Part shown: piece by piece, positions 19,502 through 50,632 of the stretch
Layout: the number at the start of each line of letters is the position of its first letter
Position numbering within the stretch: the first letter of the stretch is position 1
Assembly: GCA_016927855.1 (NCBI GenBank)
Contig: JAFGLV010000163.1
Location: 1 to 56,901, forward strand
Direction: 5' to 3'
Length of the DNA: 56,901 nt
Source: Sedimentisphaerales bacterium
Lineage (GTDB): Bacteria > Planctomycetota > Phycisphaerae > Sedimentisphaerales > Anaerobacaceae
Notes under the pieces: model-generated
The model's input: the letters and a program-made list of their open reading frames with translations, nothing else
Database searches by the model: none
Told to the model about the DNA's origin: nothing
Made by a program: the position numbers and the translations under genes

Positions 19502-21184
19502 CGAATGGACGCAACCGGTGGGGTTGCTCTGGGCACACGCCGGAGGTCTGATACGGATATGGGTGTCTGGTTCACAGACTCTGAGTACAGGCATTCGGGG
19601 CCCCTCACGAGAGTGTTTCTCGGCGCCTGTGGCGTCGCGGCTGTGGCCGGCCTGTATCTCCTCAGCCGCCAAGCCTTCTTGCTGTTCCACACGCTGGCCG
19701 AGCTGTTCAGCGTCAGCGTGGCCTTTGCCATCTTCATGATCGTCTGGAACAGCCGGCACTTCATGCAGAACAGCTACATGCTGTTCATCGGCATTGCCTA
19801 CTTCTTCGTCGGTGGTTTCGATCTGCTTCACACGTTGGCTTATGAGGGGATGGGCGTCTTTCCCGAGCATGGGGCCAATCTCGCGACGCAGCTCTGGATC
19901 GGGGCGCGCTACATGGAGGGCCTCTCGTTTCTCCTGGCGTCGCTGCTTATCCGGCGCCGGTTGAGGGCCGATCTGGTCGTCCTGGTCTATGCATTCGTGT
20001 CGGGGTTGCTGCTACTGGCGATCTTCCAGTGGAAGGTGTTCCCGGTCTGCTTCGGCGAAACGGGTCTGACCGCCTTCAAGAGCATCAGCGAGTACGTCAT
20101 CATGGCCGTTCTCCTGGCCTCTCTGGTCGTCCTGCGGAGAAGAGCCGGTGCTTTCGACTCTCGCGTGATACGCTGGGTGAGCCTGTCTATCGTTCTGACG
20201 ATCGTCTCGGAGTTCATGTTCACGCTCTACCGCGACCCCGAGGGTCAGCTAAACACCATCGGCCACCTGCTGAAGCTGGCCTCGTTCTTCGTCGTGTACA
20301 AGGCGTTGATCGAGACTGGGCTGCGGGAACCGTACCACCTGATGTACCGAGACCTCAAACAGCACGAGACAGACCTGGAGAAAGCGCGGGACCAGTTGGA
20401 GGCGCGCGTGCGGCAGCGCACGGGCGAGCTTTCGCAGACGGTCCAGGCCCTGCGCGAGGAGGTGCAGGCCCGGATGCGTGCCGAGCAGCGGATTCTCGCC
20501 GACAAGCAGCAGCTTCGCGTCCTGACGGGCCAGTTGCTCGGCACTGAGGACAAGGAGCGGCGCGCGATCGCCACGGAGCTGCACGACTCGGTGGGCCAGA
20601 TCCTCGCCTTCGTCAAGATGGAGCTGGGCGAGGTCCTGCGGTCGCAACTGCCGGAGAATGTGCTGAGGGCTGTCCGTCGCATTCGCGAGCAGATCGACGA
20701 GGCCATTACGCGGACGCGCAGCCTTACTTTCGAGATCAGCCCGCCCGAACTCTACACGCTCGGACTGGAATCCGCCATCGAAGAGCTGGCCCAGCGCTTC
20801 GGTCGTGAAAGGCGGCTCGAATGCCGCGTCCACGACTCGGAAGAGGACAAACCGCTGAATGAAGAGGTCAAGACGCTCCTCTACCGGTCGGTTCGTGAGC
20901 TTCTCATCAATGCCGCCAAGCATGCCCAGGCCAAGGTCATCGACATCACGCTGTCCAGGGTGGACGGCTGCCTCCAGGTCGTGGTGGAAGATGACGGGGT
21001 GGGATTCGACCCGGATCGGCTCGCCGCAGGGGCAGGCCGCAAGGCCGCCGGTTTCGGGCTTTTTAGTATCCGAGAACGCTTGACACATTTGGGGGGCAAG
21101 GTCTATATTGAGTCCAACAACGGAAGAGGAACTCGGGTCACTCTGTTGGCGCCTTTGTGCCGGACGGATGAGACTCTACAATAG
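19502..21184 (+). CDS. Sensor histidine kinase: polytopic membrane sensor domain plus HisKA_3 dimerisation/phosphoacceptor and HATPase_c domains (NarX/LiaS/DesK type); start uncertain (alternatives 19259, 19559)
   Basis: About 6 TM helices (…LFHTLAELFSVSVAFAIFMIVWN…). HisKA_3 H-box …RRAIATELHDSVGQILAFVKMELG…. HATPase N/G boxes (…LLINAAKHAQA…VEDDGVGFD…GFGLFSIRERL…). Confidence 0.8.
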   Translation, partial: RMDATGGVALGTRRRSDTDMGVWFTDSEYRHSGPLTRVFLGACGVAAVAGLYLLSRQAFLLFHTLAELFSVSVAFAIFMIVWNSRHFMQNSYMLFIGIAYFFVGGFDLLHTLAYEGMGVFPEHGANLATQLWIGARYMEGLSFLLASLLIRRRLRADLVVLVYAFVSGLLLLAIFQWKVFPVCFGETGLTAFKSISEYVIMAVLLASLVVLRRRAGAFDSRVIRWVSLSIVLTIVSEFMFTLYRDPEGQLNTIGHLLKLASFFVVYKALIETGLREPYHLMYRDLKQHETDLEKARDQLEARVRQRTGELSQTVQALREEVQARMRAEQRILADKQQLRVLTGQLLGTEDKERRAIATELHDSVGQILAFVKMELGEVLRSQLPENVLRAVRRIREQIDEAITRTRSLTFEISPPELYTLGLESAIEELAQRFGRERRLECRVHDSEEDKPLNEEVKTLLYRSVRELLINAAKHAQAKVIDITLSRVDGCLQVVVEDDGVGFDPDRLAAGAGRKAAGFGLFSIRERLTHLGGKVYIESNNGRGTRVTLLAPLCRTDETLQ

Positions 21185-21196
21185 GAGCAGTGAAGG

Positions 21197-21850
21197 ATGA
21201 GCACTCGCGTTATCATCGCAGACGATCACACGATCGTACGTCACGGGTTGATAAACCTGCTCCAGCGGGAAGAGGACTTCGACGTGGTCGGCGAAGCGCA
21301 GAACGGCCAGGCTACCGTTCAGCTTGCCCGGGACCTGCTGCCGGATATTGTCGTGATGGATGTCGGCATGCCGGACCTTAACGGCATCGACGCGACGCAG
21401 CAAATCATCCGGGACAACCCAAAAGTCAAGGTGCTGGCCCTCTCCATGCATTCCGGCAAGAAGTTCGTCATGGCTATGCTTAAAGCGGGCGCCTCCGGCT
21501 ATCTGCTGAAAGACTGCGCGCTCGAGGAGCTGACCAATGCGCTGCGGACCATCGTGGACGGCAAGACCTACCTGAGTCCGTCCATCACCGATGTGGTCAT
21601 CCAGAACTACGTCCATCCGTCCCCCGGGGAGGACCAGTCGGCGTTTTCCATTCTCTCGCAGCGCGAGCGCGAGGTGCTTCAGCTCATGAGCGAAGGCAAC
21701 ACCACCAAGCAGATTGCCATGCAGCTCCACATCAGTCCCAAGACCGTGGAAGGGCATCGGCTGCGACTGATGACCAAGCTCGATATCGACAACGTGGCGC
21801 AATTGACCAAGTACGCGATTCAGGAGGGGCTCACCTCCGTCGAGCCGTGA
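21197..21850 (+). CDS. Response regulator, NarL/FixJ/LiaR family (REC domain + LuxR-type HTH)
   Basis: REC: RVIIADDHTIVRHGL…DIVVMDVGMPDLNGIDA…KVLALSMH…. LuxR HTH: …LSQREREVLQLMSEGNTTKQIAMQLHISPKTVEGHRLRLMTKLDI. Starts 13 nt after the kinase stop. Confidence 0.9.
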   Translation: MSTRVIIADDHTIVRHGLINLLQREEDFDVVGEAQNGQATVQLARDLLPDIVVMDVGMPDLNGIDATQQIIRDNPKVKVLALSMHSGKKFVMAMLKAGASGYLLKDCALEELTNALRTIVDGKTYLSPSITDVVIQNYVHPSPGEDQSAFSILSQREREVLQLMSEGNTTKQIAMQLHISPKTVEGHRLRLMTKLDIDNVAQLTKYAIQEGLTSVEP

Positions 21851-22023
21851 ATTCGCGCCGGCGCGGTCGTTCGCGGTCCGTGCTTTGCCCTGCGGTTTCT
21901 TCTCTTCCTTTTTGTCTTCTCACGACGTTTTTCTTTCGATTTTTCTCCCGTTTCGAGCGTCCGTCCCCGTAGAGATGCAGGTCACCCGCCGGCCAGGGCG
22001 CATGATTAGTTGTACCTACCGGC

Positions 22024-22052
22024 TTGACAACCGCACGAAGTGGCGGTAGTTG
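22024..22052 (+). promoter_or_regulatory. Candidate sigma70-type promoter TTGACA-17nt-TAGTTG upstream of pspA-1, overlapping a partial inverted repeat CAACCGC…GCGGTAGTTG (possible NarL-type regulator site)
   Basis: Read directly from the sequence. The -10 match is weak; no computational support. Confidence 0.25.
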
Positions 22053-22171
22053 TGCCAGTGTCTCACCCCGGATGTGTTCCGTGCCTCCTGTGGAGGGAGG
22101 GTCGTGGCGGAGCACGAAGGACGATCAGAGGGGTCCACCCAGCCCCTCGTCGTCGGTCATTCCGGAAGTAG

Positions 22172-22212
22172 CACGGGCATCTTGCCCGTGATTCATGGGC
22201 GAGACGCCCATG
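22172..22212 (+). promoter_or_regulatory. Two back-to-back perfect hairpins in the pspA-1 leader (CACGGGCA-TCT-TGCCCGTG and CATGGGCG-AGA-CGCCCATG)
   Basis: Read directly; both are 8-bp stems with 3-nt loops, 34 nt upstream of the pspA-1 ATG. A 60-nt pyrimidine-rich tract lies at 21896-21955. Confidence 0.35.
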
Positions 22213-22245
22213 CTACGAGCCGGAAGCCTGGAAAGGAGTACCACC

Positions 22246-22929
22246 ATGGGACTTTTCAAACGTCTGCACCGTATCACCGTCGGCAGGATCGAGGCCTTCC
22301 TCAGCCGGGTCGAGGACCCGGAAATGGTCTTCCCTGTCCTGATTAAGGAGATGGAAGAGCAGTTGCAGGCCGCCACCGAAGCCGAAGCCAAGGCCCGCGC
22401 GACGCTGGCAAGCTGCAAGCGGGAAATCGGCCGGCATCAGGACACGATCGAGCGGTACGGCCGCGGCGCGCTGCTGGCGCTCGAGAAAGGCGACGAGGAG
22501 ACCGCTCGCCAGTCGGTCAAGGCCCAGATCGAAGCCGAGAAGGCCTCCGAACTGTCGCGACGTAACCTGGAGATCGCCGAGCACTCGCTCGACCGCGCCA
22601 AGGCCAGCCGCGAGCAGATCCAGCGGCAGCTTGACGAGCTGCGCGTCAAAAAGAGCGAGATCCTCACCCGCGCCCGCGTCGCCAAGGTCCAGAAGAAGAT
22701 CCAGGCCAGTGTCAGCGGCACCGTGGGATCGAGTGACAGCATTCTCGACGCCGTCGCTCGCCTGGAGGCACAGGTCGAGGAAACCGAAGCCGAGCTGGAG
22801 ATCCAGGCGAACCTTACGGGTGAGGGAACCGCCAGCGCCTCCCTCGAACGCAAGCTTGACGCGTTGGACGAGGAGGCCGTCGTCGAAGAACGCCTGGCGG
22901 AGCTGAAGCGACAGGTAGGCGGTTTGTAG
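22246..22929 (+). CDS. pspA: PspA/IM30 (Vipp1, ESCRT-III-like) family protein, paralog 1
   Basis: MGLFKRLHRITVGRIEAFLSRVEDPEMVFPVLIKEMEEQLQAATEAEAKARAT… is the canonical PspA N-terminus, and the body is long coiled-coil. SD GGAAAGGAG lies upstream of the ATG at 22246. Confidence 0.85.
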   Translation: MGLFKRLHRITVGRIEAFLSRVEDPEMVFPVLIKEMEEQLQAATEAEAKARATLASCKREIGRHQDTIERYGRGALLALEKGDEETARQSVKAQIEAEKASELSRRNLEIAEHSLDRAKASREQIQRQLDELRVKKSEILTRARVAKVQKKIQASVSGTVGSSDSILDAVARLEAQVEETEAELEIQANLTGEGTASASLERKLDALDEEAVVEERLAELKRQVGGL

Positions 22930-23031
22930 TGTCCCCCGTTTGTAGGGTGCCCGTAAGGGCATTTGTAGGGGCGGGCCCCCGTGCCCGCCCAGGGCAACCA
23001 CAGGGGGTTGCCCCTACGACGCCACTACAAG
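22923..23031. repeat. Intergenic GC-rich composite palindromic element between pspA-1 and pspA-2
   Basis: Nested inverted repeats TTGTAGTG…CACTACAA and TTGTAGGGGC…GCCCCTACGA. Internal hairpins TGCCC-GTAA-GGGCA (GNRA-type loop), GGGCGGGC-CCCCGTG-CCCGCCC and GGGCAAC-CACAGGGG-GTTGCCC. Confidence 0.55.
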
Positions 23032-23078
23032 CGAACGCCCCACGGCGTCACGACGAACCAGGTCTAAGGAGAACAACC

Positions 23079-23750
23079 ATGTCGATATTCGATAGAATCC
23101 GAAGAATCGCCGGCGCCAATATCAACTGGTTACTGGATAAGGTCGAGGTCCCCGAACAGGAACTGGAATCGAAGATCAAGGAGTTGGGCGAGACCATCCA
23201 GGAAGGGCGCGAGAGTGCCGCCGCGTACGGTGCGACGTTCCGGCGGTTGGAGCACGAGTACGAAGCGCTCGGACAACGACAGCAGGAACTGACGCAGCGC
23301 GCCGAGCAGGCGCTCAAGGCCGGTGACGAAGCCACGGCGCGACAGGCGCTGACCGAGAAGGTCGGTATCGCCGAGCGGGCCGCCCAGATCCAGCCCGGCA
23401 TCGAGAAGGGGCGCAAGACCTTCGAGATGCTGCGTGACAACCTGATGCGGCTCCAGGAGCAGCTCAAGAGCGCCAAGCTGAGACTGGCGGACCTGAAGGC
23501 GCGCAAGCGGACCGCCGAGGCGCAGAAGGCGTTCGATCAGCACCTGAGCAAGACGATGGGTCTCAGCGGCGAGAACGTCGCGTTCGACCGTCTGGAGGAC
23601 GATGTCCTGCAAACCGAAGCCGAGGTGGAGATTCGCCAGGAAATGCACGGCGACGCTCTCAGTGACGTCGAGCTGGCGCAACGCTCGCGCGAGCTTCAGA
23701 TCGAAGCGGAGCTCCAGGCGATGAAAGATCAGCTTGCCGATAAGTCGTAA
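23079..23750 (+). CDS. PspA/IM30 family protein, paralog 2
   Basis: MSIFDRIRRIAGANINWLLDKVEVPEQELESKIKELGETIQEGRESAA… with a coiled-coil body. SD AAGGAG precedes the ATG. Confidence 0.85.
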   Translation: MSIFDRIRRIAGANINWLLDKVEVPEQELESKIKELGETIQEGRESAAAYGATFRRLEHEYEALGQRQQELTQRAEQALKAGDEATARQALTEKVGIAERAAQIQPGIEKGRKTFEMLRDNLMRLQEQLKSAKLRLADLKARKRTAEAQKAFDQHLSKTMGLSGENVAFDRLEDDVLQTEAEVEIRQEMHGDALSDVELAQRSRELQIEAELQAMKDQLADKS

Positions 23751-23773
23751 AGGGCCTTGGAAAGGGCACGAAG

Positions 23774-24439
23774 ATGGCAGAGTTCATTACCGCCGCTTTC
23801 TCGCCGGTCAACGTCCTCTTCACGGCGTTGCTGCTCCTGATTGGGCTCTACTGGATCACAGTGATTCTGGGTGTGCTCGACGTCAACCTCTTCGACATCG
23901 ATCTACCCGATTCAGGCCTGGAAGGCGACCTCGACGCGGACGCAGGTGCAGACGTCGACGCGGAAGGCCTGGGCATCTTCCGCTCGATCCTGCACTTCTT
24001 CTACATCGGCGAAGTCCCCACGATGCTGCTGATCAGCGTTCTGGTCTTGAGTCTCTGGGCCTTTTCGATGCTGGGCAACTACTACTTCAACCCCAGCGGC
24101 TCGCTCCTGGTCGCGCTGCCGATCTTCCTGGTCAACTTGGTCGTCAGCGCGTTCGTGATGAAGGTGTGTGGGCTGCCGCTACAAAGGCTATATGCGATGC
24201 TGAACAAGGACTACAACGCGCCCGGCGACGTCATCGGGCGGATCTGCAAGGTCACAACCCTCCACGTGACCCAAGACAGAATGGGACAGGCCGAGGTCCC
24301 CACGAAAGGGGCGCCGATCGTCCTGAACGTCCTGTCCCAGGACGACCATGAATTCGTTCGTGGCGAAGAAGCGGTGGTTGTTGCTAAGGACAGCGAAAGA
24401 GGAACGTATCTAATTGCACCTGTGGATTTGGAGAAATAG
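23774..24439 (+). CDS. NfeD/YqiJ-like membrane protein (N-terminal TM helices + acidic linker + C-terminal OB-fold-like beta domain), the usual partner of SPFH/flotillin proteins
   Basis: Three or four TM segments (…LFTALLLLIGLYWITVILGVL…; …VPTMLLISVLVLSLWAFSML…; …LLVALPIFLVNLVVSAFVM…) and an acidic DLDADAGADVDAEG linker. C-terminal …GRICKVTTLHVTQDRMGQAEVPTKGAPIVLNVLSQDDHEFVRGEEAVVVA… resembles the NfeD OB-fold. Sits immediately upstream of the flotillin (3-nt gap). Confidence 0.6.
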   Translation: MAEFITAAFSPVNVLFTALLLLIGLYWITVILGVLDVNLFDIDLPDSGLEGDLDADAGADVDAEGLGIFRSILHFFYIGEVPTMLLISVLVLSLWAFSMLGNYYFNPSGSLLVALPIFLVNLVVSAFVMKVCGLPLQRLYAMLNKDYNAPGDVIGRICKVTTLHVTQDRMGQAEVPTKGAPIVLNVLSQDDHEFVRGEEAVVVAKDSERGTYLIAPVDLEK

Positions 24440-24441
24440 TC

Positions 24442-26424
24442 ATGAGCGATGCCGTGGTCGCCACCGTTATCGTGTTCGTCGTTCTCATCGGCATGGGCTT
24501 TCTGGCCCTGCTGGTCAAGTGCTACCGCAAAGTCCTGCAGGGTCAGGCGCTGATCCGCAATGGGGTCGGCGGGACGCGCGTCAGCTTCTCCGGCATGTTC
24601 ATCATCCCGGTCTTGCACCGCGCCGAGTATATGGACGTCTCGGTCAAGCGCATCGAGATCGACCGGCGCGCGCTGCAGGGATTGATCTGCAAGGACAACC
24701 TGCGCGCCGATATCGTCGTCGCCTTCTTCGTGCGCGTCAACAACACCGTCGACGATGTGATCAAAGTCGCCCAGTCACTAGGCTGCGAGCGTGCGTCAGA
24801 CCGCCAAGCGCTCGTCGAGCTGTTCGACGCGAAGTTCTCCGAGGCGCTCAAGACGGTCGGCAAGCAGTTCGATTTCTCCGAGCTGTACACCAACCGGATG
24901 CGCTTCCGCGAGCAGATCCTCGAAGTGATCGGGACCGACCTGAGCGGCTACGTTCTCGAAGACGCGGCCATCGATTACCTCGAACAGACCGACAAGAAGC
25001 TGCTGAATCCCGACAACATCCTCGATGCCGAAGGTATCAAGAAGATCACTGTCCTGACCGCCGAGCAGTTCGAACTGGCGAATGCTCGTGAGCGCGAGAA
25101 GGACAAGACCATCACGCAGCAGAATGTTGAGGCCCAGGAGGCCATTCTCGAACTCAACCGGCAACTGGCGGAAGCGGAAGCCAAGCAGAAACGGGAGGTG
25201 GTCAGTGTGCAAGCCCGCGAGGAGGCGGAGACCAAGAAGGTCCAGCAAGAAGAGCGCGAGAAGGGTGAGAAAGCACGCATCACCGCCGAAGAAGAGATCG
25301 CGGTGGCGGAGGAGAACCGTCAGCGGCAGATCATCGTAGCCTGCCGCAACAAGGAGCGCACCGACGCCGTTGAGACCGAACGGGTCGAGCGCGACAGAGG
25401 ATTGGAGGCGACGGAGCGCGAGCGGGTCGTCACCATCGCGCAGGTCGAGAAGGACAAGACCGTCGAAGCGGAGAAGAAGGAGTTGCAGTCGGTCATCCGC
25501 GAGCGTGTGATCGTCGAGAAATCGGTCGCGACCGAAGAGGAGCGTATCAAGGACGTACGGGAATTCGCCGGCGCCGACCGTAGCAAGCGCGTGCAGATCA
25601 CCAAAGCCGAAGAGGAAGCCGAGCAGGCGCTGGTCAAGGACATCAAGCAGGCGGAAGCCGCCAAGAAGGCACAGGAATTCTACGCCGAGCAAGCGGTGAT
25701 TGAGGCTCAGGCCAACCAGGACGCCGCGGTCAAGAACGCGGAGGCCAAAAAGACCCTCGCGGCCGCGTCGGTCAAAGAGCAAGCCGTCGAAGGCACCGCG
25801 GAGGCGGAAGTCATGGAGATCAAGGCGGCTGCGGTCGAGAAGTACGGCACCGCGGAAGCCAAGGTCATGGAGCTCAAGTACCACGCCGATGCCGACGGTA
25901 TCCGCGACAAGGCCGACGCGATGAAGATCTTCGACGCCGTTGGCAAGGAGCACGAAGAATTCAAGCTCCAGCTCAACAAGGACAAGGACATCGAGCTGGC
26001 CGAGATCGACGTCAGACGGCAGATTGCCGCCGAGCAGGCCAAGATCGTTGGCGAGGCGCTCAAGTCCGCCAAGATCGACATCGTCGGTGGTGAGAACCGC
26101 TTCTTCGAGCGGCTCGTCAATTCCATCGCGACCGGCAAGAGCGTCGATCATCTGGTCAAGCACAGCGAGGTGCTCACCGACGTCAAGGACAACCTGCTCG
26201 GTCCCGATATGGACGCCACGCGGAACCAGATTCAGAAGTTCGTCTCGCAGTTCGGACTCAGCTCCGAAGACATCAAGAACCTGACGATCTCGGCGCTGGT
26301 CCTGAAACTGATGGGCCAGGCGGACAAAGGCCAGAAGGGAATCCTCAGCGGAATCCTCAATACGGTCAAGGAGCTGGGAATCGCCGAGATGCCCGTCAAG
26401 AAGCTGGGGCTCGAAGCGAAGTAA
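24442..26424 (+). CDS. Flotillin-like SPFH/band-7 protein (YqiK/FloT-like) with a long EA-rich coiled-coil tail
   Basis: N-terminal TM anchor plus SPFH domain (…KCYRKVLQGQALIRNGVGGTRVSFSGMFIIPVLHRAEYMDVSVKRIEIDRRALQGLICKDNLRADIVVAFFVRVN…), then ~350 aa of heptad-rich E/A/K repeats typical of flotillins. Confidence 0.85.
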   Translation: MSDAVVATVIVFVVLIGMGFLALLVKCYRKVLQGQALIRNGVGGTRVSFSGMFIIPVLHRAEYMDVSVKRIEIDRRALQGLICKDNLRADIVVAFFVRVNNTVDDVIKVAQSLGCERASDRQALVELFDAKFSEALKTVGKQFDFSELYTNRMRFREQILEVIGTDLSGYVLEDAAIDYLEQTDKKLLNPDNILDAEGIKKITVLTAEQFELANAREREKDKTITQQNVEAQEAILELNRQLAEAEAKQKREVVSVQAREEAETKKVQQEEREKGEKARITAEEEIAVAEENRQRQIIVACRNKERTDAVETERVERDRGLEATERERVVTIAQVEKDKTVEAEKKELQSVIRERVIVEKSVATEEERIKDVREFAGADRSKRVQITKAEEEAEQALVKDIKQAEAAKKAQEFYAEQAVIEAQANQDAAVKNAEAKKTLAAASVKEQAVEGTAEAEVMEIKAAAVEKYGTAEAKVMELKYHADADGIRDKADAMKIFDAVGKEHEEFKLQLNKDKDIELAEIDVRRQIAAEQAKIVGEALKSAKIDIVGGENRFFERLVNSIATGKSVDHLVKHSEVLTDVKDNLLGPDMDATRNQIQKFVSQFGLSSEDIKNLTISALVLKLMGQADKGQKGILSGILNTVKELGIAEMPVKKLGLEAK

Positions 26425-26427
26425 GAC

Positions 26428-26454
26428 GTGTCGCGGGCAAGATGCCCGCGACAC
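26428..26454 (+). terminator. Perfect 12-bp-stem hairpin (GTGTCGCGGGCA-AGA-TGCCCGCGACAC) 4 nt after the flotillin stop; no U-tract, so it may be an attenuator or processing site rather than a full terminator
   Basis: Read directly from the sequence. Confidence 0.35.
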
Positions 26455-26516
26455 GAGAGCGCCCAACGTAACCTCAACCGATGAACGGTTTATAAGTTGA
26501 TAGGACTGACAAAGGC

Positions 26517-29500
26517 GTGACGATGGAGGAAAACGCAGTCCAGAACGGGACCGACTCAACGAACGCTGCGCCGGAGCAGACGGAGCTGCGCGGCGGGACG
26601 TACGAGATCCTCCGTTCCAGGCTCACCAACCACGGCAAGGAGCTTCGCAGCCGGCTGGGCAAGCTCAACGAAGCGCGCAAGCAGGTCTTCGGCGCCGTCG
26701 AGAGCAAGCTGCTCTCCAGCGAGCGGATTTCGACGGACAACAACTGCGTCCCTCGGGACATGGTCCCGATCGGCGACAAGTTCATCTTCGGGTACAACGT
26801 GTTTGTAGGCCTCCGCGCCGAGACGGTATTGGAGGACGTCTTCGCGATCTACCAGTGGAAGGACGGCACGTTCACCTCGCGTCCGCTCGATCTGATTCGC
26901 AACGCCGAGTTCGAGGCGGACTTCAAGAATCTCTATCGCTACTACCGCAAGACGGTGTTCGCGAAGTTCTCGGTGATCGGGCCGCACCTGTTCATGGTCT
27001 TTCGTGTCGGCCGCGATGTCGCGGACATCAAGACGTTCAAATGGCTCATCCGCGGCGGCGCGCTGGAGTACCAGGGCAACCGCAGCGACCATGAGTTCAT
27101 CTTCCCGCCGCAGCACGAGTTTGAGTGGCAGCGGGTCACGCAGGACATGTTCCGGCAGGGCAAGAACCCTCATATTTCCATCCAAGACCGCGTCTTCGTC
27201 GAGACCATCGGCGGCGATCTGACGATCAAGATAGAGGACAACACCGAGACCGGCGAAGGCATCTACGCCGAGCCGGTGGACAACCCCGACCAGATGCTCA
27301 GCGACGCCGAGATACGGTATGCGATTGTCGGTAGTCTGATCGTCTTGAAAATCCGGCCGTACGAAGAACAGCAATTCAGGTATTTCGTCTACAACGAGAA
27401 GATTCAGAAGGCCATCCGGCTCGACGCGATCGAGCAGGCCTGCATCCTGTTGCCCGAAGACCACGGTTTCGTCTTCCCCAAGGGCTACTACCTCAAGACG
27501 GGCGAGCTCAAGCAGTTCGAGACCCAGATGGATGACATGGTCTTCGAGAAGCGGCTCGATTCGCCCAATGGCGAAGACTGTCTTTACGTCTTTCACAACC
27601 GCGACAGCGGCGTTTACGTCCTGCTCTCGTACAACATCATCGAGCAGAAGATCAGCACGCCGGTCGTCTGCAACGGCTATTCTTTCTTCGAAGACGGCAC
27701 GCTGATCTACTTCCGCGCCAACGACGAGCCGAAGAAGCACCACGCGATCCAGGTCTGGCAGACGCCGTACTACGGCCCCGACTTCGTGATCCCGGTCAAG
27801 ACCGACTCGCAGCTCTACAAGATCGGCAACAAGGACATCGTGCGCTGCATGGCCGAGTGTACCGAGATCATCACGCTACTCGGCCAGGAGGAGACCTACG
27901 TCAACCTCTACCTCGACCTTGCCCGCAAGGCGGAGGAGGTTCAGGATGCCTACTTCTGGATCGACTCGGCGGAGCTATTCAACCTGGCCGAGCCGCTGGG
28001 CGCCATCCGTGACGCGGCCCGTGCGGCCGTGGACGAGTACGAGAAGGTCGTCCGCACGAAGGAGAACACGCGCGCCCAGATTGCCGAAGTCACGCAGCAG
28101 GTGCGCGAGATCGTCACGGCTATCGACTACAGCGGTTTGAACGAGATACACGAGTACGTCGAGCACCTGGCGCAGCTTCGTTCCATTCGGGGTCAGGTCA
28201 TATCGCTACGCGACCTGCGCTACGCCGATACGGAGATGATCGCATCGCTCGAAACAGAAGTGGCCGAGCATACCGACAAGCTCTCTCGCCAGTGCGTGGA
28301 GTTCCTGCTCAAGCCCGAGTCGCTCGATCCGTATCGCGCGAAGGCCGAGGGCTTTGGGCGACAGGTGCCTGAACTGGGGAAGGTGGCCGACGCCAGGCAG
28401 TTGCAGGAGCAGGTGGCTGAGACTGCCTCCAGCCTGGAAATGCTCACCGAGATCGTGAGCAATCTCAAGATCGAGGATGCGACGCAGACCATCGCGATCA
28501 TCGACAATATCTCCCTGGTCTATGCCGAAGTGAACCAGGTCAAGTCGGCGCTGAAGAACAAGCTCAACGAGATCGGCAAGATCGAAGGGCAGGCGGAGTT
28601 CAGCTCGCAGCTCAAGCTTATCGACCAGTCGGTCGTCAACTACCTCGACGTGTGCGACACGCCGGACAAGTGCGACGAATACCTCACCAAGGCGATGGTC
28701 CAGATCGAAAACCTCGAGAGCCGCTTTGCTGACTTCGAGGAGTTCGTCGTCCAGCTTGCCGACAAGCGCGAGGAATTGTACGACGCGTTCAACTCGCGTA
28801 AGGTCCAGCTCGTCGCCGCGCGCAACCAGCGCGCGTCCGCGCTGATGGCGTCCGCCGAGCGGATTCTCAAGGGCATCGAGAACCGCGTTCGCAACCTCAC
28901 CGACATCAATGAGATCAATGGCTACTTCGCGTCCGACCTGATGATCGACCGGATTCGTCAGACGATCGAGCAGCTCAAGCAGTTGGGCGACACCGTTAAG
29001 GCTCAAGATGCCGAGAGCCGGCTCAAGACCATCCACCAGGACGCGGTCCGCCAGCTCAAGGACAGGCAAGCGCTCTACGAGGAAGGCGAGAATGTCATCC
29101 GCCTGGGCAACCAGAAGTTTGCGGTCAACCGTCAGGCGCTGGAAGGCACGATCGTTCGCAAGGAAGGCAGGCTATTCTTCCACCTGACCGGCACCGGCTT
29201 TTTCGAGGCTATCGAAGACGAGTTGTTGGAGCAGACCAAGGACGTCTGGGACCTCGACGTGCTGTCGGAATCGCCTGGCGTCTACCGCGCCGAGTATCTG
29301 GCTTTCAAGATGCTCGAAAACCTACGCGCCGGTTCGCTGGTAGGGGCGACCCCCCGTGGCCGCCCTGGGCAGGCACAGAGACCTGACCCTACGCTTTCGG
29401 ACGTGCAGGCCTTCATGAGCCCGCGCTACAACGAGGGCTACGTCAAAGGCGTTCACGATCGCGACGCGGCCGCGATTCTCGAAGCCTTGTTGCAGCTTGA

Positions 29501-31853
29501 GTCGGCGATCGGCCTGTTACGCTACGGCACCGCTGCCCGCGCGCTGGCGACGGTATTCTGGCACGCGCGCCGAGACGACCACGACGCGCTGGCGGCGAGA
29601 ATCACCGGCATGGGCCGTGTCAATCGCCTGTTCGGTCCCAGTCCCGCACAGGCCGGGTACGTTACCGAAATCGAGACCCGTCTCATGACCTTTGTCAAAG
29701 AGACCCAACTCTTCGACCCCGGCCTTGTCAGCGAAGCGGCCGAGTACTTGTTCCACCAGCTCTCGAGTGAGGGCGGGTTCGTGGTCAGCCAAGTGGCTGT
29801 CGGCCTGAAGGAGGGATTCGAGAGACACCTGGAGCAGAGCCACTTCGGCGAGGAATTCGCCCAATCGAGACACGCCCTGGTGGGCGATCCGCTCAGTTGC
29901 TTCAGGCTGGTTCGGGATTGGGTGCGCTCGTATCTGCGCGGTGCCGACGGGCAGGATCGCGACGAATACGCCGATGAAGTGGCGACCTTGCTGTTGCCTG
30001 AGCTTGCGGAAGGCAGAGAAGTCGTGACCGCGAGCGTGGAGCAGGAACTGACCGGGCTCGTCGGTTCGCACCCGCTGATCGAGCAAGGCAATTATCGGCT
30101 CAATTACTGTCATTTCATGGCCAGGCTCCGTCACCACGAGCAGTGTATCGTCCCGAAGTTCACGCGGTACCAGGCGGCGCGCAACGCGCATGTCGAGTGT
30201 TACAGCAAGCAACTGCACCTGGAGGAGTTCCAGCCGCACGTGCTCACGACGTTCGTGCGCAACCGGCTCATCGACAAGATCTACCTGCCGCTGATCGGCC
30301 AGAACCTCGCCAAGCAGATCGGCGCCGAAGGCGAATCGAAACGGACCGACCGGCAGGGATTGCTGCTGTTGATCTCGCCGCCGGGCTATGGCAAGACCAC
30401 GCTGATGGAATACGTCGCCAACCGGCTCGGTTTGACCTTCGTGAAGGTCAACGGCCCGGCCGTCGGCAATCGCGTCACGTCGCTCGATCCGAACGAAGCG
30501 CCCAACGCCGCGGCGCGCCAGCAGCTCAAGAAGCTCAATCTCGCCTTCGAGATGGGCGACAACGTCATGATCTATGTCGACGACATTCAGCACACCAGCC
30601 CTGAGTTTCTCCAGAAGTTCATCTCGCTCTGCGACGCGCAACGCCGCATCGAAGGCGTTTACCGGGACCAGACGAGAACGTACGATCTGCGTGGCAAGCG
30701 CGTCTGCGTCGTGATGGCTGGCAATCCCTATACCGAGAGCGGCCAGCGCTTCCGCATTCCGGACATGCTCGCCAACCGCGCCGACACCTACAACATCGGC
30801 GACATCGTCGGCGACAACTACGACCAGTTCGCGCTGAGCTACATCGAGAACTGCCTGACGTCGAACCCGGTGCTGGAGACGTTGACGCGACGCAGCCAGA
30901 ACGACGCCTACGCCGTGATGAAGATGGCGGAGACCGACCAGCAGGAGGGCATCGATTTCGAGGGCAACTACACGGTCGAGGAAATCCACGAATACGTCGC
31001 AACAATGAAAAAGCTTCTGACGGTGCGCGACGTCGTGCTGAGGGTCAACCAGGAGTACATCCGCTCGGCCGGCCAGGCGAAGGAGTATCGCACGGAGCCG
31101 CCCTTCCTGCTACAGGGGTCGTACCGCAACATGAACCGGATCGCCGCGCGCGTATTGCCCATCATGAACGACCAGGAGCTCTGGACGTTGATTCACTCGG
31201 CCTACGAGCAAGACGCGCAGACGCTCACGACCGGCGCCGAGAACAACCTGCTCAAGTTCCGCGAGCTGACGGGCCGACTGACCGACGAGCAGGCCGCACG
31301 CTGGGCCGAAATCAAGCGCACCTTCCAGCGCAACGTCCTGTTGGGCGACGACACGGAAGACAAAGTCGGCAAGATGATCCGCCAGCTCAATGCTTTCTCG
31401 GCCGGTCTGGATTCGATCAAGGACGTCCTGGCACAGGGTGTCACGACGATGGCGCAAAGCCGAGCGGCAGAGCCTGCGTTGCGCGAAACCGACACGTTCA
31501 AAACCGCGGCCGACGACATCCTTGCCAAGATGGGACAACTGATCGCCGAGATCAAGCAGCAGCGCACCGTCGAGAGTGTGCGAGAGACGGCGCAACGCGC
31601 CGAGCAGACCAAGAGCGATTCGCGCACGCTCGTGTCGGTCCTAGAAGAGCAATTTAAGGCAATGGAGACCTGGCTGCTGCCGATGTCGCACGGCGACAAG
31701 GACGAGCGGGATCGCGTCATCGACCAACTGGCCGAACGGTTCGAGACGATGGTGCGCGGCTACACCAAGCTGATCGACGTACTCAAGAGCAAACGCGTCG
31801 GCGCAGATGCGCCGCCGAAGAAGACGACACGAAAGCCCCGCAGCGGGGAATAA
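26517..31853 (+). CDS. Giant (1778-aa) multidomain protein: beta-rich N-terminal region, extended coiled-coil middle, C-terminal AAA+ ATPase domain; function unknown
   Basis: Walker A …LLLISPPGYGKTTLMEY… (~30381-30404). Walker-B-like …DNVMIYVDDIQH… (~30568-30594). Sensor-like …VCVVMAGNPYT… and arginine-rich …RIPDMLANRADTYNIG…. No TM segments. In operon-like order after the flotillin and before pspA-3. Confidence 0.8.
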   Translation: MTMEENAVQNGTDSTNAAPEQTELRGGTYEILRSRLTNHGKELRSRLGKLNEARKQVFGAVESKLLSSERISTDNNCVPRDMVPIGDKFIFGYNVFVGLRAETVLEDVFAIYQWKDGTFTSRPLDLIRNAEFEADFKNLYRYYRKTVFAKFSVIGPHLFMVFRVGRDVADIKTFKWLIRGGALEYQGNRSDHEFIFPPQHEFEWQRVTQDMFRQGKNPHISIQDRVFVETIGGDLTIKIEDNTETGEGIYAEPVDNPDQMLSDAEIRYAIVGSLIVLKIRPYEEQQFRYFVYNEKIQKAIRLDAIEQACILLPEDHGFVFPKGYYLKTGELKQFETQMDDMVFEKRLDSPNGEDCLYVFHNRDSGVYVLLSYNIIEQKISTPVVCNGYSFFEDGTLIYFRANDEPKKHHAIQVWQTPYYGPDFVIPVKTDSQLYKIGNKDIVRCMAECTEIITLLGQEETYVNLYLDLARKAEEVQDAYFWIDSAELFNLAEPLGAIRDAARAAVDEYEKVVRTKENTRAQIAEVTQQVREIVTAIDYSGLNEIHEYVEHLAQLRSIRGQVISLRDLRYADTEMIASLETEVAEHTDKLSRQCVEFLLKPESLDPYRAKAEGFGRQVPELGKVADARQLQEQVAETASSLEMLTEIVSNLKIEDATQTIAIIDNISLVYAEVNQVKSALKNKLNEIGKIEGQAEFSSQLKLIDQSVVNYLDVCDTPDKCDEYLTKAMVQIENLESRFADFEEFVVQLADKREELYDAFNSRKVQLVAARNQRASALMASAERILKGIENRVRNLTDINEINGYFASDLMIDRIRQTIEQLKQLGDTVKAQDAESRLKTIHQDAVRQLKDRQALYEEGENVIRLGNQKFAVNRQALEGTIVRKEGRLFFHLTGTGFFEAIEDELLEQTKDVWDLDVLSESPGVYRAEYLAFKMLENLRAGSLVGATPRGRPGQAQRPDPTLSDVQAFMSPRYNEGYVKGVHDRDAAAILEALLQLESAIGLLRYGTAARALATVFWHARRDDHDALAARITGMGRVNRLFGPSPAQAGYVTEIETRLMTFVKETQLFDPGLVSEAAEYLFHQLSSEGGFVVSQVAVGLKEGFERHLEQSHFGEEFAQSRHALVGDPLSCFRLVRDWVRSYLRGADGQDRDEYADEVATLLLPELAEGREVVTASVEQELTGLVGSHPLIEQGNYRLNYCHFMARLRHHEQCIVPKFTRYQAARNAHVECYSKQLHLEEFQPHVLTTFVRNRLIDKIYLPLIGQNLAKQIGAEGESKRTDRQGLLLLISPPGYGKTTLMEYVANRLGLTFVKVNGPAVGNRVTSLDPNEAPNAAARQQLKKLNLAFEMGDNVMIYVDDIQHTSPEFLQKFISLCDAQRRIEGVYRDQTRTYDLRGKRVCVVMAGNPYTESGQRFRIPDMLANRADTYNIGDIVGDNYDQFALSYIENCLTSNPVLETLTRRSQNDAYAVMKMAETDQQEGIDFEGNYTVEEIHEYVATMKKLLTVRDVVLRVNQEYIRSAGQAKEYRTEPPFLLQGSYRNMNRIAARVLPIMNDQELWTLIHSAYEQDAQTLTTGAENNLLKFRELTGRLTDEQAARWAEIKRTFQRNVLLGDDTEDKVGKMIRQLNAFSAGLDSIKDVLAQGVTTMAQSRAAEPALRETDTFKTAADDILAKMGQLIAEIKQQRTVESVRETAQRAEQTKSDSRTLVSVLEEQFKAMETWLLPMSHGDKDERDRVIDQLAERFETMVRGYTKLIDVLKSKRVGADAPPKKTTRKPRSGE
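29339..29393 (+). repeat. In-frame intragenic copy of a GC-rich palindromic repeat (GGTAGGGGCGACCCCCCGTGGCCGCCCTGGGCAGGCACAGAGACCTGACCCTACG), encoding …GATPRGRPGQAQRPDPTL… inside the giant ATPase gene
   Basis: Nucleotide similarity to the intergenic elements at 22923-23031 and 35567-35649 (GTAGGGGC…CCCCGTG…GCCC…ACAG…CCCTAC). Confidence 0.5.
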
Positions 31854-31898
31854 CCATTCGTCCTGACCTCGGGTTTGTACAGACCATAGGCGACCACG

Positions 31899-32579
31899 AT
31901 GGGACGCATCGAGCGATTGAAAGCGGTGACCATGGCGCGGATCGAAGCCTTTCTGGCGTCGCTGGAAGAGCCTGAGACCGTCATTGGTCAACTGGTTCGC
32001 GAGATGGCAGACAAGGTGACGGAGGCGGCTCGCGCGGAGGCCAAGGCTCTCAGCGCCGTCAAAGCGGATCGTCGCCGGCTCGATGCCGCCAGCGGCCGGG
32101 TCGAACGCCTCGGCAAAGGTGCGACGCTCGCGGTCAAAGCCGACGAGCTCGACACAGCGCGCCAGGCCATCGCCGCCCAGATCGAGGCGGAGCGCGAGGT
32201 CGAGAAGTGCCGTGCGAGGCTGGAAACGTCCGAGTCGGCGTATCATTCAGCCGGAGGGGTACGCGCACAACTTCGGCGACAGCTCGACGAGCTCAGACTC
32301 CGCAAGGACGACATCCTTGCGCGCGTACGGGCTGTCCGACAGCGGGCGGAGACGCAAAATGTTGCGTCTCTACACGAGGGGGCTGGCGGTATTCTGGAGG
32401 CCATTGCCCGAATGGAGATGAAGGTTGACGAAGAGGAAGCCCAGATCGAAATACAGGACCAGATCAGGCAGACACTGGGCGCGACCTTCCAACACGAGCG
32501 GGCGGTCGAACTGGAAAACGACGCGGAAGTCAACCGCCGACTGGATGAGCTAAAGACGCGCGTCCGCCGGGACGAATGA
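31899..32579 (+). CDS. PspA/IM30 family protein, paralog 3
   Basis: MGRIERLKAVTMARIEAFLASLEEPETVIGQLVREMADKVTEAARAEAKAL… parallels paralog 1, with a coiled-coil body. Starts 46 nt after the giant ATPase stop. Confidence 0.85.
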   Translation: MGRIERLKAVTMARIEAFLASLEEPETVIGQLVREMADKVTEAARAEAKALSAVKADRRRLDAASGRVERLGKGATLAVKADELDTARQAIAAQIEAEREVEKCRARLETSESAYHSAGGVRAQLRRQLDELRLRKDDILARVRAVRQRAETQNVASLHEGAGGILEAIARMEMKVDEEEAQIEIQDQIRQTLGATFQHERAVELENDAEVNRRLDELKTRVRRDE

Positions 32580-33992
32580 AGCCGCGCTCTCGCTGTCAGC
32601 GGTGGGCCGCAAATTCAAACATGCCTGCAACCGCGCGCGGAAGAACGGACTGAGGAATCCCAGAAGCATATAGGGCGCACTCAGCGCATAAAGACAGAGA
32701 CCGATGATCGCCCCTGCTACAATGGCCTGCAAGATCACCCCTGGAATCTCCGAGGCGCTTGGCCCAGAAGGAAGCACAGACAGAAGCACGGCGAACGCGA
32801 CCAGCATGGCAGCCACACCAGCGACGATCATCCACACAGCCAGCCACAGCATGAAGGGACCGGGCCGATAGAGTGTTCGACACAAGCGGGAGGCAGCGGC
32901 CGGTGCGAGAATCAGCACTCCACCTATAGTGCCGAGAAAGACCATGAAGACGGTTGTTTCTTCCGAAGACGCCGTGCCGTATGAAATGACGCTCAGACCG
33001 GCAACCGCCAGGAATAGGACAAACGCAGCAGCCATGCGCACGACGCCGCGCCGTCCGAGCGCGGGAACCACCAGCCACAGCAACGTCACCCCGACGACCA
33101 GTGACTGAAGAAGCGCGTCGAACTGTATCGCGGATGACGAAGACATGTCCAGCATCGCCCTGAGCAAGAGATAGGCCAAGTTTACGACAGCCAGAGGGAT
33201 GAGAAGCAGCAGTACGCGGCGATTTCGATTGGCCTTGAGCCCCACTGCCGCCACAATCAAGACCAGCCAGACGAGCAGTCCGGACGCCGTGTCGTACCAG
33301 CGCCATTCGAAGAGCGACGCCTGGCCTTGGTGGGGTCCCAAGTCGCCGATATTCGCCGAGGGGACAATCCGGAACTGCCCGAATGCGGTTAGCGGTACTC
33401 GCCACGAGTACGAACAGGTGCTAGCGCCTCAGCCATACTCGAAGTCGTCGTTCGCGATGGCCCTGTCCCCTCGGTACACGGTAAAAGTGGCCCGATTGTC
33501 TGCCCGTCTCGGTGCGGCATACTCCTCGCCGCCGATTCCCCGCAACTGGTAGTTCAGAACCAGTACACGTCCCTGGCGCTTGATCTGGATTGTCTGTTGT
33601 AGCGGGCCGCCTGCTTTCAGCACGGCCGTCTTGTCTGGGGCTACCTCAAGATGGCGCAATTTTGTCAGGCCTTGGGCTTGGCACGTGTAGTCGTCCCTCA
33701 GGGTCAACTGCTTGACGCGGTACGTGCCAACCGGCAGTTCGATGGTCCCGCGGAGGTTGCTCCATTCCTCGGTATGGCCGTCGTCGCGTTCCAGCAGGAG
33801 CCGCGCGATGTGCGTTCCCTCGATCTTCAACTTGCCCTTCGGCTGGTCCGCGTCCTGCGCCCGGGCGGCGGAAACGGCCCCGCCCAAGGCCATCAGGCCA
33901 GCCGCCAACAGCCGACAGACGACTTTTTTTGAAATCCGGCCAGATTTCATGTCCCCTTTTCCGCTAGTGCGCACTGTAAGTAGAGACGCCAC
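32550..33992 (-). CDS. Candidate selenoprotein, paralog A: signal peptide + ~150-aa beta domain ending …DFEYG, in-frame TGA (33429-33431), …GASTCSYSWRVP…, then fused in frame to a ~260-aa polytopic (about 8 TM) membrane domain
   Basis: ORFs 33429..33992(-) and 32550..33341(-) share one frame across the TGA (…DFEYG*GASTCSYSWRVPLTAFGQFRIVPSANIGDLGPHQGQASLFEWRW…). A SECIS-like hairpin lies 17 nt downstream of the TGA. selA and selB are on the same strand nearby. Confidence 0.5.
33394..33412 (-). promoter_or_regulatory. SECIS-like hairpin for paralog A (mRNA GUACUCG-UGG-CGAGUAC)
   Basis: Seven-bp stem, 3-nt loop, beginning 17 nt 3' of the in-frame UGA. Confidence 0.45.
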
Positions 33993-34043
33993 GAGGGGTC
34001 CATGTTAGCCGAAAGCACGCTCGGATGCCAGAACCCTGCGGTG

Positions 34044-35545
34044 TCAATGGCGATAGATCGTGAGCGTCCGCGTTCCCGTCACCGTGCCGTAGAGTCTGCC
34101 GGTCTCGTAAGTGGCGGTGATCGTGAAGGTCTCCTCGTTGCCGTTCAGTTCCAGGTCTTGTGGTACTCGCCACGAGTACCCGCAGGTGCCGCCTCAGCCG
34201 AAGGGCATCGGGCCCTCCGCGACAGTCTTGCCGGACGCGTTTGTGATCTTGATCGTCGGCGCGACGGACTCGAACATATCCATTTCGCGACCGCTGGGCA
34301 GGTTCGCCGAGCCTGTCTTCTTCGTGGTATCCTCCAAAGCGGAGATCATCATACCATTAGCGAGGTCACAGAGCATCGCTTCGACCTTTAGCGTCTGGCC
34401 TGTCTTGACACGCTGGCCGCCGGTCGGACTCTTGAAGACTACTTCAGGTTTGGCCGAGAAATCGAGCACGAAGGGCGTGTCCTCTCGGATCGTGATGAAG
34501 AAGCTGATCGGGGTGGCGTCTGGCTTGCCTAGCTGCGCGGTGTCCACCCCCAAGCCGATGCGCCGTTGATCGTAGCGTACCGCCATCCGAAACGGTCGGT
34601 AGTCACCGACCGGCAGGCTTAGTTTGCCATCCTTATGCGGGCATTCGTCGACATCGATCAAGGCGTCCCTGCTGTAGACCCAGCCGAATTCGAGCGTCGG
34701 CGCCGCCATATCCCGGCCGCCCGCGCCGGTTTCGAGCACGCCGAACGGGCCTGCATACGGTGCCACCGTCACTTTGTCTCCCGCCGGTGTCGCCGAGAGG
34801 CGGTAGAACGTACCTTTCACGGACCGCCAGTACCCGGCCAAGGGAAGGGACTCGGTGGTGCCGTTCAGAAAGGTGCCGGTCATCGGCGTGTCGTACCGAC
34901 CTGCAATCGTGTGAGCCTGGCCGAGCACCAACTCCACTTCGCGCGAGCCGAGCATGATCTTGCCCTTGCGCGCGGTAGGCGCCGCGAAGAACATGTAGGT
35001 GGTTTCTCCCATACCCCGCAGGCGAGGCATGACGGTCTGCGTGAACGTGCCCTGGCCGGGGCCGTAGTCCATCTCGATTTGGATGTTCTCGAAGAGGATG
35101 TCTCCCGACCGGTTTTGCATGCCGTCAGAAGTTCCATCGGCTCGACCGAGGAAGGGATCGTTGGTCAAGTCGCCGTCGCGGTTCACGTCGAAGTAGAGAC
35201 GGTCATAGTCTGTACCCGCCGACCTGTCGAGCGCGAAATTGTAGCGCAGTCCCGCCTGTGGGTCGAACAAGCTCATGGCGAACGTAACGGCGCCATAGAT
35301 GGGCTCGTCGGACTTGAACGCCGGGTAGGTGACGCCCTCGATCGGCGTGCGGCCGCATTCGGTCGTCGGCTGGCCGGACATGAGCTGCATTTGACGCGGT
35401 CGGGACAGTCAAAGATGGAAACCTCTTCCATCGCATAGACCTTCCCGGCCGCTGCCGGGCTTTCCGCGGCCCCGATCGGCACCGCCTGCGAAAGGCCGAG
35501 CAGCGCCACGCTCAGCAGAGCGAAGGCCATTGCGTTGTCCTTCAT
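34044..35545 (-). pseudogene. Candidate selenoprotein paralog B: …PMPFG, TGA (34194-34196), then GGTCGYSWRVPQDLELNGNEETFTITATYETGRLYGTVTGTRTLTIYRH. A 1-nt frameshift near 35390-35410 separates the signal-peptide exon (35400-35545) from the body, so it is a pseudogene or a sequencing error
   Basis: N-terminal MKDNAMAFALLSVALLGLSQA…VSIFDCPDRV is in a different frame from …MQLMSGQPTTECGRTPIEGVTYPAFKSDEPIYG…. Alignment to paralogs C, D and E restores continuity with a single-base indel in an AAA run. Confidence 0.45.
34162..34180 (-). promoter_or_regulatory. SECIS-like hairpin, paralog B (GGUACUCG-UGG-CGAGUACC)
   Basis: Eight-bp stem starting 13 nt 3' of the UGA. Confidence 0.45.
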
Positions 35546-35566
35546 GTTCGACCTCCTTCAGCAACA

Positions 35567-35649: not shown

Positions 35650-35671
35650 CACACTGAAAACGCACACAATG

Positions 35672-37249: not shown

Positions 37250-37280
37250 AATCGTTCCTTTCTCGTATTGAGGTCCGTGT

Positions 37281-50613: not shown

Positions 50614-50632
50614 CTACCCCAAGGAGAAGACA

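Follow-up and report, generated by a model that had tools for sequence, protein, structure and literature searches.

The closest described system to the locus presented here is an operon reported in silico by Ravi et al. in 2024 (mSystems, PMC11237479, section 19 and Table S3), which combines CesT/Tir-PspA, YqiJ/YuaF and Band-7/flotillin genes with a gene for a β-propeller–coiled-coil–AAA+ protein. This operon, exemplified by ANH61663.1 from Dokdonia donghaensis, was predicted to act in ATP-dependent membrane remodelling, and an analogy with ESCRT-III and Vps4 was drawn (PMC11237479). A related operon of eight genes is found in a 56,901-bp stretch of DNA, hereafter the window, from a metagenome-assembled genome of the Sedimentisphaerales (Planctomycetota, Phycisphaerae). 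It encodes a two-component system, three PspA paralogues, an NfeD-like membrane protein of the YqiJ/YuaF type, a flotillin and a giant AAA+ protein.

Both operons share the order YqiJ/YuaF, Band-7 with coiled coil and flotillin, and propeller with coiled coil and AAA+, with PspA upstream. Despite this similarity, the window holds neither a CesT/Tir-like gene nor a divergent cHTH-peptidase regulator: no open reading frame (ORF) for a CesT/Tir-like chaperone is present between 21850 and 23774, and the 131-residue family that occurs in Bacteroidota (c6) is absent from the window. Moreover, two tandem pspA genes lie upstream of the ATPase gene and a third one downstream of it, and the operon holds a structured leader RNA and, only in its own sub-lineage, a MASE3/NarL two-component system. 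A preliminary description of this DNA had put forward a candidate membrane-remodelling machine with PspA, flotillin and an AAA+ protein, an idea that had already been published in silico, including the ESCRT-III/Vps4 analogy (PMC11237479). What is new here is the Phycisphaerae variant with three PspA proteins and without CesT/Tir, the quantified finding that the ATPase is constantly accompanied by flotillin rather than by PspA, its MoxR-like fold, and a candidate leader RNA.

Other known systems share only part of this gene set. The pairs YqiJ–YqiK from E. coli and YuaF–FloT from B. subtilis are homologous to that of the window, and in them the gene for an NfeD-like protein likewise precedes that for a long SPFH/coiled-coil flotillin (PMC2636767). 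However, neither of these pairs has an AAA+ gene in third place, and neither operon includes pspA. On the other hand, the pspA-ydjGHI (samGHI) operon from B. subtilis co-encodes PspA with an SPFH protein, YdjI, and membrane partners, and YdjI is reportedly needed to recruit PspA to the membrane (PMC8581546). In contrast to the flotillin of the window, YdjI is short and soluble, and its operon has a single PspA and no ATPase. Neighbourhoods combining PspA, Band-7/FloT and NfeD are also known from other phyla (PMC9239133). As for the energy supply of such systems, a review from 2025 states that bacteria lack a Vps4-like or dedicated ATPase for the ESCRT-III homologues PspA and Vipp1 (PMC7619361). 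In hundreds of species, an AAA+ protein of 1600–2000 residues is genetically tied to flotillin/NfeD, and PspA has been added to this set repeatedly; such a protein is an obvious candidate for the missing energy source.

On balance, the operon of the window is probably a membrane-maintenance (envelope-stress) operon, built on a widespread module of YqiJ/NfeD, flotillin and giant ATPase, to which three PspA paralogues were recruited in one Phycisphaerae lineage. Its eight co-oriented genes occupy positions 19505–32579 of the plus strand, as deduced from the ORF listing and from Pfam and NCBIfam scans. These, together with hhalign, bore out the gene content, orientation and gene descriptions of the preliminary description. 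Some of the starts have been revised: the kinase gene begins with ATG 19505, with 19559 as a possible alternative, 19502 not being a start codon as read from the sequence; the starts of PspA-1 and PspA-2 were corrected to 22246 and 23079 by orthologue alignment, and that of the giant gene to ATG 26523. The operon ends at 32579, where the next gene is convergent, and G+C content is even through the region (~0.61), with no compositional break. The features of the operon are the following:

19505–21184, plus strand: sensor histidine kinase with MASE3, coiled coil, HisKA_3 and HATPase_c (Pfam; alternative start at 19559)
21197–21850, plus strand: NarL/FixJ-type response regulator, REC plus LuxR/GerE helix-turn-helix (Pfam)
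22024–22052, plus strand: candidate sigma-70-type promoter (TTGACA at 22024–22029, 17 nt, TAGTTG at 22047–22052)
22067–22245, plus strand: structured 5' leader RNA with four helices (RNAalifold covariation, covariance model)
22246–22929, plus strand: PspA-1, PspA/IM30 family of the ESCRT-III superfamily, 227 residues (Pfam; start from orthologue alignment)
23079–23750, plus strand: PspA-2, 223 residues (Pfam; alignments)
23774–24439, plus strand: YqiJ/YuaF-type NfeD-like membrane protein, 221 residues, with transmembrane helices and a C-terminal β domain (hhalign)
24442–26424, plus strand: YqiK-type flotillin, 660 residues, with N-terminal membrane anchor, SPFH domain and Glu/Ala-rich coiled coil (hhalign)
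26427–26455, no strand assigned: GC-rich hairpin (13-bp stem) in the gap that separates the flotillin and giant genes (folding)
26523–31853, plus strand: giant cytoplasmic protein DUF3686–DUF7902–AAA+, 1776 residues (Pfam, AlphaFold2 fragment models)
31899–32579, plus strand: PspA-3, 226 residues, last gene of the operon (Pfam)

The module was traced through the distribution of the giant protein, which in the window is identical to record P0001 (1776 residues). A pattern scan for this protein, with one genome per GTDB species, detected its gene in at least 598 species genomes, and 80 loci were kept for neighbourhood analysis. These loci span seven lineages (Planctomycetota, Bacteroidota, Verrucomicrobiota, Desulfobacterota, Kiritimatiellota, Omnitrophota and Clostridia), and the gene order YqiJ, flotillin, giant is kept in all seven lineages. 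Full-length members of the family have 1600–2036 residues, always with the propeller at the N-terminus, and the propeller domain alone forms 755 clusters at 50% identity among 1.84 billion representatives. Cultured carriers of the gene include Hymenobacter, Aquimarina, Leeuwenhoekiella, Vallitalea, Clostridium intestinale and Roseibacillus, which makes the role of the ATPase as energy source directly testable. Upstream sequence of at least 4.5 kb was available for 62 loci. In 59 of these a flotillin gene directly precedes the giant gene on the same strand, and 54 have a detectable YqiJ gene, also on that strand; the median gap is ~120 nt.

The linkage to PspA is different. With an iterated PspA hidden Markov model, only 22 of the 80 loci, from several phyla, proved to have a pspA gene no more than 10 kb away from the giant gene. 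The constant partner of the ATPase is thus the flotillin/YqiJ pair, and its linkage to PspA is weaker. The pairing of ATPase and PspA proposed in the preliminary description holds for the lineage of the window, where both are linked, but it does not extend to the family as a whole, and PspA is absent even in sister Phycisphaerae. Within this class, the layout PspA, PspA, YqiJ, (short Band_7), flotillin, giant, PspA is kept in relatives whose giant proteins are 88, 75, 62, 62 and 57% identical to that of the window (L081/L082, L083, L086, L209 and L210, respectively), and in L002, L003, L081, L083, L086, L209 and L210 the giant gene has an orthologue of PspA-3 on its downstream side. Since this six-gene core recurs in relatives in which the giant protein is just 57–75% identical, the arrangement is not due to chance. 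Other Phycisphaerae with giant proteins of 69–72% identity (L001, L004, L005, L018, L085 and L208) hold the three-gene module only. Two pspA genes before the giant gene and one after it are a peculiarity of the Phycisphaerae.

Most of the loci bearing PspA belong to Bacteroidota, whose giant proteins are 47–53% identical to that of the window. In them, PspA follows the 131-residue gene (c6) and is accompanied by a divergent XRE-peptidase regulator, which is the arrangement published for Dokdonia. In some Bacteroidota loci (L017, L031, L069 and L077), the giant gene is succeeded by a set of four genes (clusters c16, c17, c18 and c12). The last of them encodes a protein whose N-terminus bears membrane helices and whose C-terminal part, judged by eye, resembles spermidine/spermine synthase. 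This set appears to unite two classes of PspA operons that were kept apart by Ravi et al. 2024.

The giant protein was matched by Pfam to DUF3686 (residues 42–480, E = 4.3e-188), DUF7902 (602–684, E = 1.5e-25) and, at residues 1283–1407, AAA (E = 1.2e-07) and AAA_5 (E = 1.3e-05). AlphaFold2 (AF2) fragment models, built on an alignment of 67 sequences spanning Planctomycetota and Clostridia, reached a mean pLDDT (predicted local distance difference test) of 82–83. Numbering here refers to the 1778-codon ORF, and the boundaries taken from these models are approximate:

residues 28–58: single helix (AF2)
residues ~64–415: β-propeller, DUF3686 (AF2)
up to residue ~853: long helices, including DUF7902 (AF2)
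residues ~860–898: small β domain (AF2)
residues ~960–1160: all-helical domain, well predicted (AF2)
residues ~1250–1610: MoxR-like AAA+ module (AF2)
C-terminal ~150 residues: coiled coil, lower confidence (AF2)

Walker A (GYGKT, 1290–1294), Walker B (YVDD, 1353–1356), the sensor-1 residue N1403 and R1421 are invariant in 14 aligned Planctomycetota homologues. This invariance, together with the confident AF2 models, suggests that the protein is competent as an ATPase. Its AAA+ module is nearest to MoxR remodelers and has the fold of the MoxR/dynein/McrB group, not that of the classical clade to which Vps4 belongs. A β-hairpin, predicted to lie after the Walker B helix and before the sensor-1 strand, fits the MoxR/dynein/McrB group. 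Compared with the MoxR proteins CbbQ, NorQ and RavA, however, the module sits inside a propeller/coiled-coil protein of 1776 residues, its Walker B motif ends in DD instead of DE, and it has no gene for a VWA/MIDAS partner at its side; no such domain was found by Pfam in the eight proteins of the cluster, nor among the recurrent neighbours. Foldseek searches with the N-terminal half retrieved generic propellers, as well as propeller-and-helical proteins (clathrin, ROD) at low TM-score.

The comparison with Vps4 made in the preliminary description fails when taken as a claim of membership. No MIT domain was found in the giant protein by Pfam (E ≤ 0.01), and in the AF2 models the N-terminus is a helix followed by the propeller, although the internal helical domains were not separately fold-searched. 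The giant protein is also approximately four times larger than Vps4, and MoxR-like in its fold. As a functional analogy the comparison is possible: as in the archaeal and eukaryotic ESCRT-III/Vps4 systems, genes of the ESCRT-III superfamily lie beside an AAA+ ATPase gene, and an ATP-driven polymer cycle could be common to both. The analogy nevertheless loses strength, since from genome to genome the ATPase goes with flotillin and not with PspA. A precedent for an SPFH assembly that works with its own AAA+ machine at the membrane is provided by HflK/C–FtsH, where an SPFH cage encloses an AAA+ protease. Unlike FtsH, the giant protein has no protease domain or membrane anchor, and their AAA+ clades differ.

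The flotillin of 660 residues had no match in Pfam, NCBIfam or a PDB sequence search, and Pfam Band_7 was detected in only one of its 16 orthologues. However, a profile of these 16 orthologues aligned with E. coli YqiK over 395 columns (hhalign, probability 100%, E = 2.1e-39), and the protein has the N-terminal membrane anchor, the SPFH domain and the long Glu/Ala-rich coiled coil of the YqiK/FloT type. This clade of flotillins, though clearly homologous to YqiK by profile comparison, is an annotation blind spot of Pfam Band_7/Flot and of NCBIfam. The 221-residue protein encoded 2 nt upstream matched Pfam YqiJ_N weakly (E = 0.0017), and its profile aligned with E. coli YqiJ (hhalign, probability 94.8%, E = 5.2e-08). 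As expected for YqiJ/YuaF-type proteins, it combines a multi-pass membrane N-terminal part with a soluble C-terminal β domain and is encoded directly upstream of the flotillin. Both the flotillin and the NfeD/YqiJ assignments of the preliminary description were right according to these matches. Some relatives hold an additional short Band_7/SPFH gene of ~185 codons between yqiJ and the long flotillin gene (L086 5331–5885, L210 4219–4782 and L013 6969–7520), which does not exist in the window.

The three PspA proteins matched Pfam PspA_IM30 above its cut-off (E = 2.6e-24, 4.9e-27 and 4.3e-14) and can be aligned with E. coli PspA over their whole length. All of them are below the NCBIfam equivalog cut-offs for PspA and LiaH, and are therefore considered members of the PspA/IM30 family, not orthologues of PspA or LiaH. 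They are 27–40% identical to each other (27–28% for PspA-2 and 39–40% for PspA-3, each against PspA-1), and their paralogy is old within the lineage, because each one has its own orthologue in the relatives. No match to PspF-, PspB- or PspC-like families of the proteobacterial Psp system was found among the eight proteins with Pfam and NCBIfam. The N-terminal amphipathic helix is retained in PspA-1, PspA-2 and PspA-3, and all three keep a C-terminal helix with the motif (D/E)xx(V/I)xx(R/Q)LxxLK, which resembles the MIM1 consensus of ESCRT-III proteins. The same motif is present in E. coli PspA, which works without such an ATPase, so it was rejected as a specific signal of a Vps4-type partner.

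Expression of the operon may be controlled at several levels. In the 395 nt upstream of pspA-1, the –35 box TTGACA is present in four of seven aligned loci and TTGA in all seven, with a TA-rich hexamer downstream at conserved spacing. TTGACA–17 nt–TAGTTG is thus a candidate for the promoter of the operon, as judged by its conservation. The leader that follows, of ~180 nt, is conserved in relatives (L081 5619–5803, L083 5652–5793, L086 2995–3139, L133 3680–3815, L209 2695–2832 and L210 1873–2023), also in loci without the two-component system. RNAalifold predicted four helices with 37 pairs, 14 of them with compensatory changes. Paired cells amounted to 96.5%, compared with 86.3% in shuffles, and none of 500 shuffles reached the observed pairing, number of compensated pairs or covariation score; when the 3' partners were slid by one to three columns, pairing fell to 37–53%. 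A covariance model gave 115–131 bits in eight loci, and also detected the P1–P2 half of the leader immediately upstream of yqiJ in three Phycisphaerae loci without PspA (L004, L005 and L085). In the window, P4 bears a lineage-specific double-hairpin insert. No match for the leader was found in Rfam, and it represents a candidate new cis-regulatory RNA supported by covariation; seven sequences, two of them near-identical, underlie the structure, the evidence being good but thin. A metagenome scan with CGTCGTCGGTNATTCCGG yielded chance matches, with a true leader in only one (L133) of the 80 loci listed from at least 120 matching stretches, and further examples were obtained by gene-based look-ups.

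Between the flotillin and giant genes, the hairpin at 26427–26455 is strong and has no U-tract, and the same intergenic region of L081 and L086 holds strong hairpins of different sequence. This element might tune the ratio of scaffold to enzyme. Its 15-nt core, CGGGCATCTTGCCCG, occurs twice in opposite orientation, at 22174–22188 (in the leader insert) and at 26434–26448 (in the gap between flotillin and giant genes). Shuffles gave 0.3 expected matches, and two matches were reached in 3 of 100 of them. The core may represent a small repeat, or else a site that one protein or RNase recognises at both positions.

Upstream of the promoter lies the two-component system, which the preliminary description called Lia-like. 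The kinase holds MASE3 (E = 1.4e-85), HisKA_3 (1.9e-11) and HATPase_c (1.6e-16), and the regulator Response_reg (3.6e-28) and GerE (1.8e-20). The pair shares the HisKA_3/NarL class with LiaSR and lies upstream of pspA-1, but beyond this it is a generic pair with a MASE3 sensor: NCBIfam equivalog scores are far under the cut-offs (74.9 against 450 bits for LiaS, 189 against 300 for MctR), no LiaF or LiaI match was found among the eight proteins with Pfam and NCBIfam, and no other gene-sized ORF lies between the genes of the cluster. The system adjoins the operon only in relatives with an 88%-identical giant protein, and is absent from those at 75, 62 and 57%. The kinase of the window is 77% identical to that of L081 (537 residues). 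Because these 88% relatives also share the upstream Laminin_G_3 gene, they are not independent evidence for the linkage, and the two-component system was rejected as a part of the conserved system.

A working model for the membrane-maintenance operon can be outlined from these features. By analogy with other SPFH/NfeD pairs, the flotillin would be anchored by its N-terminal hydrophobic segment and would oligomerise through the SPFH domain and the Glu/Ala coiled coil, forming a membrane scaffold with its NfeD-like partner. The giant protein is expected to form a MoxR-type AAA+ ring, whose propeller, carried on ~400 residues of long helices, would dock on the scaffold or on its clients. As its fold and gene linkage suggest, ATP hydrolysis may then assemble, remodel or recycle these assemblies. 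The three PspA proteins, presumably encoded by the same transcript, would attach to damaged membrane by means of the amphipathic helix at their N-terminus; they are probably recruited by the flotillin, as YdjI recruits PspA, and may also be clients of the ATPase. Expression would start at the conserved promoter and proceed through the structured leader, which could exert a regulatory role, and in this sub-lineage only, transcription may additionally be controlled by the MASE3 kinase and its NarL-type regulator. A more ambitious version, in which the giant ATPase is an energy-consuming remodeler of both flotillin and PspA polymers, an independent counterpart of Vps4 from another AAA+ clade, with the Phycisphaerae operon under control of a hitherto undescribed cis-regulatory leader RNA, is tentative and would rather be doubted at present.

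The idea of a PspA–flotillin–AAA+ machine for membrane maintenance, as the preliminary description had it, is reasonable, the giant ATPase being linked to membrane-organising genes and not to DNA-repair genes. Several points weigh against the membrane-maintenance reading, however. Full-text literature searches retrieved no biochemical or genetic study of any member of the giant family, no papers for DUF3686, and no experimental study for the combination of flotillin, AAA+ ATPase and operon. Gene linkage is evidence of functional coupling, and does not identify the substrate protein of the ATPase. Canonical MoxR ATPases pair with VWA-domain partners, and none is encoded at the operon. The three-gene module is mostly found without a nearby PspA, so that the link to PspA may be one of co-regulation only. 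Finally, a two-component system that is adjacent only in near-identical relatives is weak evidence of control.

A narrower explanation would make the giant protein a dedicated Vps4-like motor that disassembles or recycles PspA (ESCRT-III) filaments through the C-terminal helices of PspA. The position of its gene between pspA paralogues, in a layout kept down to 57% identity, is consistent with such a role, as are the independent joining of PspA to the module in Bacteroidota, Kiritimatiellota and Omnitrophota and the C-terminal PspA helix resembling the MIM1 consensus. The ESCRT-III/Vps4 analogy of Ravi et al. 2024 points the same way. Nevertheless, the giant protein carries a propeller where Vps4 has its MIT domain, the MIM-like helix is shared with the PspA of E. 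coli, and ~70% of the loci have no PspA within 10 kb, compared with 95% that have a flotillin, all of which renders a PspA-dedicated motor rather improbable. Public databases suggest yet another function, since the Pfam text for DUF3686 reads 'ATPase involved in DNA repair' and homologues are named 'DNA repair ATPase' by NCBI, so that the membrane neighbours would be incidental. Weak matches to RuvB_N and RuvB over the Walker A region agree with this, but they cover only ~50 residues around the P-loop and are far under the cut-offs. The preliminary description had named placement in an unrelated class, with no linkage to PspA or flotillin genes, as the outcome that would speak against it; what was found is an almost universal linkage to flotillin/YqiJ in seven lineages, with no recurrent DNA-repair neighbours. 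The name is probably a coiled-coil artefact of SMC/SbcC-type annotation; the same coiled-coil effect gives the PspA proteins weak JetC and LmuB matches in PADLOC. It has no experimental or contextual support, not a single paper dealing with DUF3686, and a DNA-repair function can be set aside almost completely.

Large ATPases with membrane effectors are also common in defence islands, and a weak match to mad8 (E = 0.0027) over the P-loop might point to an anti-phage or abortive-infection system composed of membrane proteins and an ATPase. When six of the proteins were examined with PADLOC, its models gave nothing beyond coiled-coil or P-loop noise, and the defence reading was rejected on these grounds. 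Furthermore, the neighbours are housekeeping and carbohydrate-active genes instead of defence genes, and the locus is vertically conserved within Phycisphaerae with no compositional anomaly, so that a defence role is very unlikely. For the membrane-maintenance operon, the practical outcomes of this comparison are the correction of a misleading 'DNA repair ATPase' name, the exposure of a gap in the Pfam and NCBIfam flotillin models, and a leader RNA that serves as a handle on regulation.

Other genes of the window deserve mention. Converging on the operon, five consecutive ORFs of the minus strand (32596–38855; 269, 187, 398, 471 and 474 residues) have no Pfam match. L081 holds at the same position four genes (242, 176, 450 and 444 residues), also with no Pfam match, and in more distant relatives such genes were not found beside the operon. 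A secretin gene lies 18 kb upstream (1743–3608, plus strand; Secretin E = 2.2e-36, Secretin_N in three stretches); in Proteobacteria, the Psp response is classically induced by mislocalised secretins. A protein of 436 residues with an unusual architecture, TPR repeats plus two copies of RNA_pol_A_CTD (E = 2.3e-43), is encoded at 14405–15715 on the minus strand. Genes that look like ordinary context are that for a fused SecD/SecF of 1231 residues (7604–11299, minus strand) and those for three tandem HGD-D paralogues, similar to the D-component of 2-hydroxyglutaryl-CoA dehydratase (50540–54356, plus strand).

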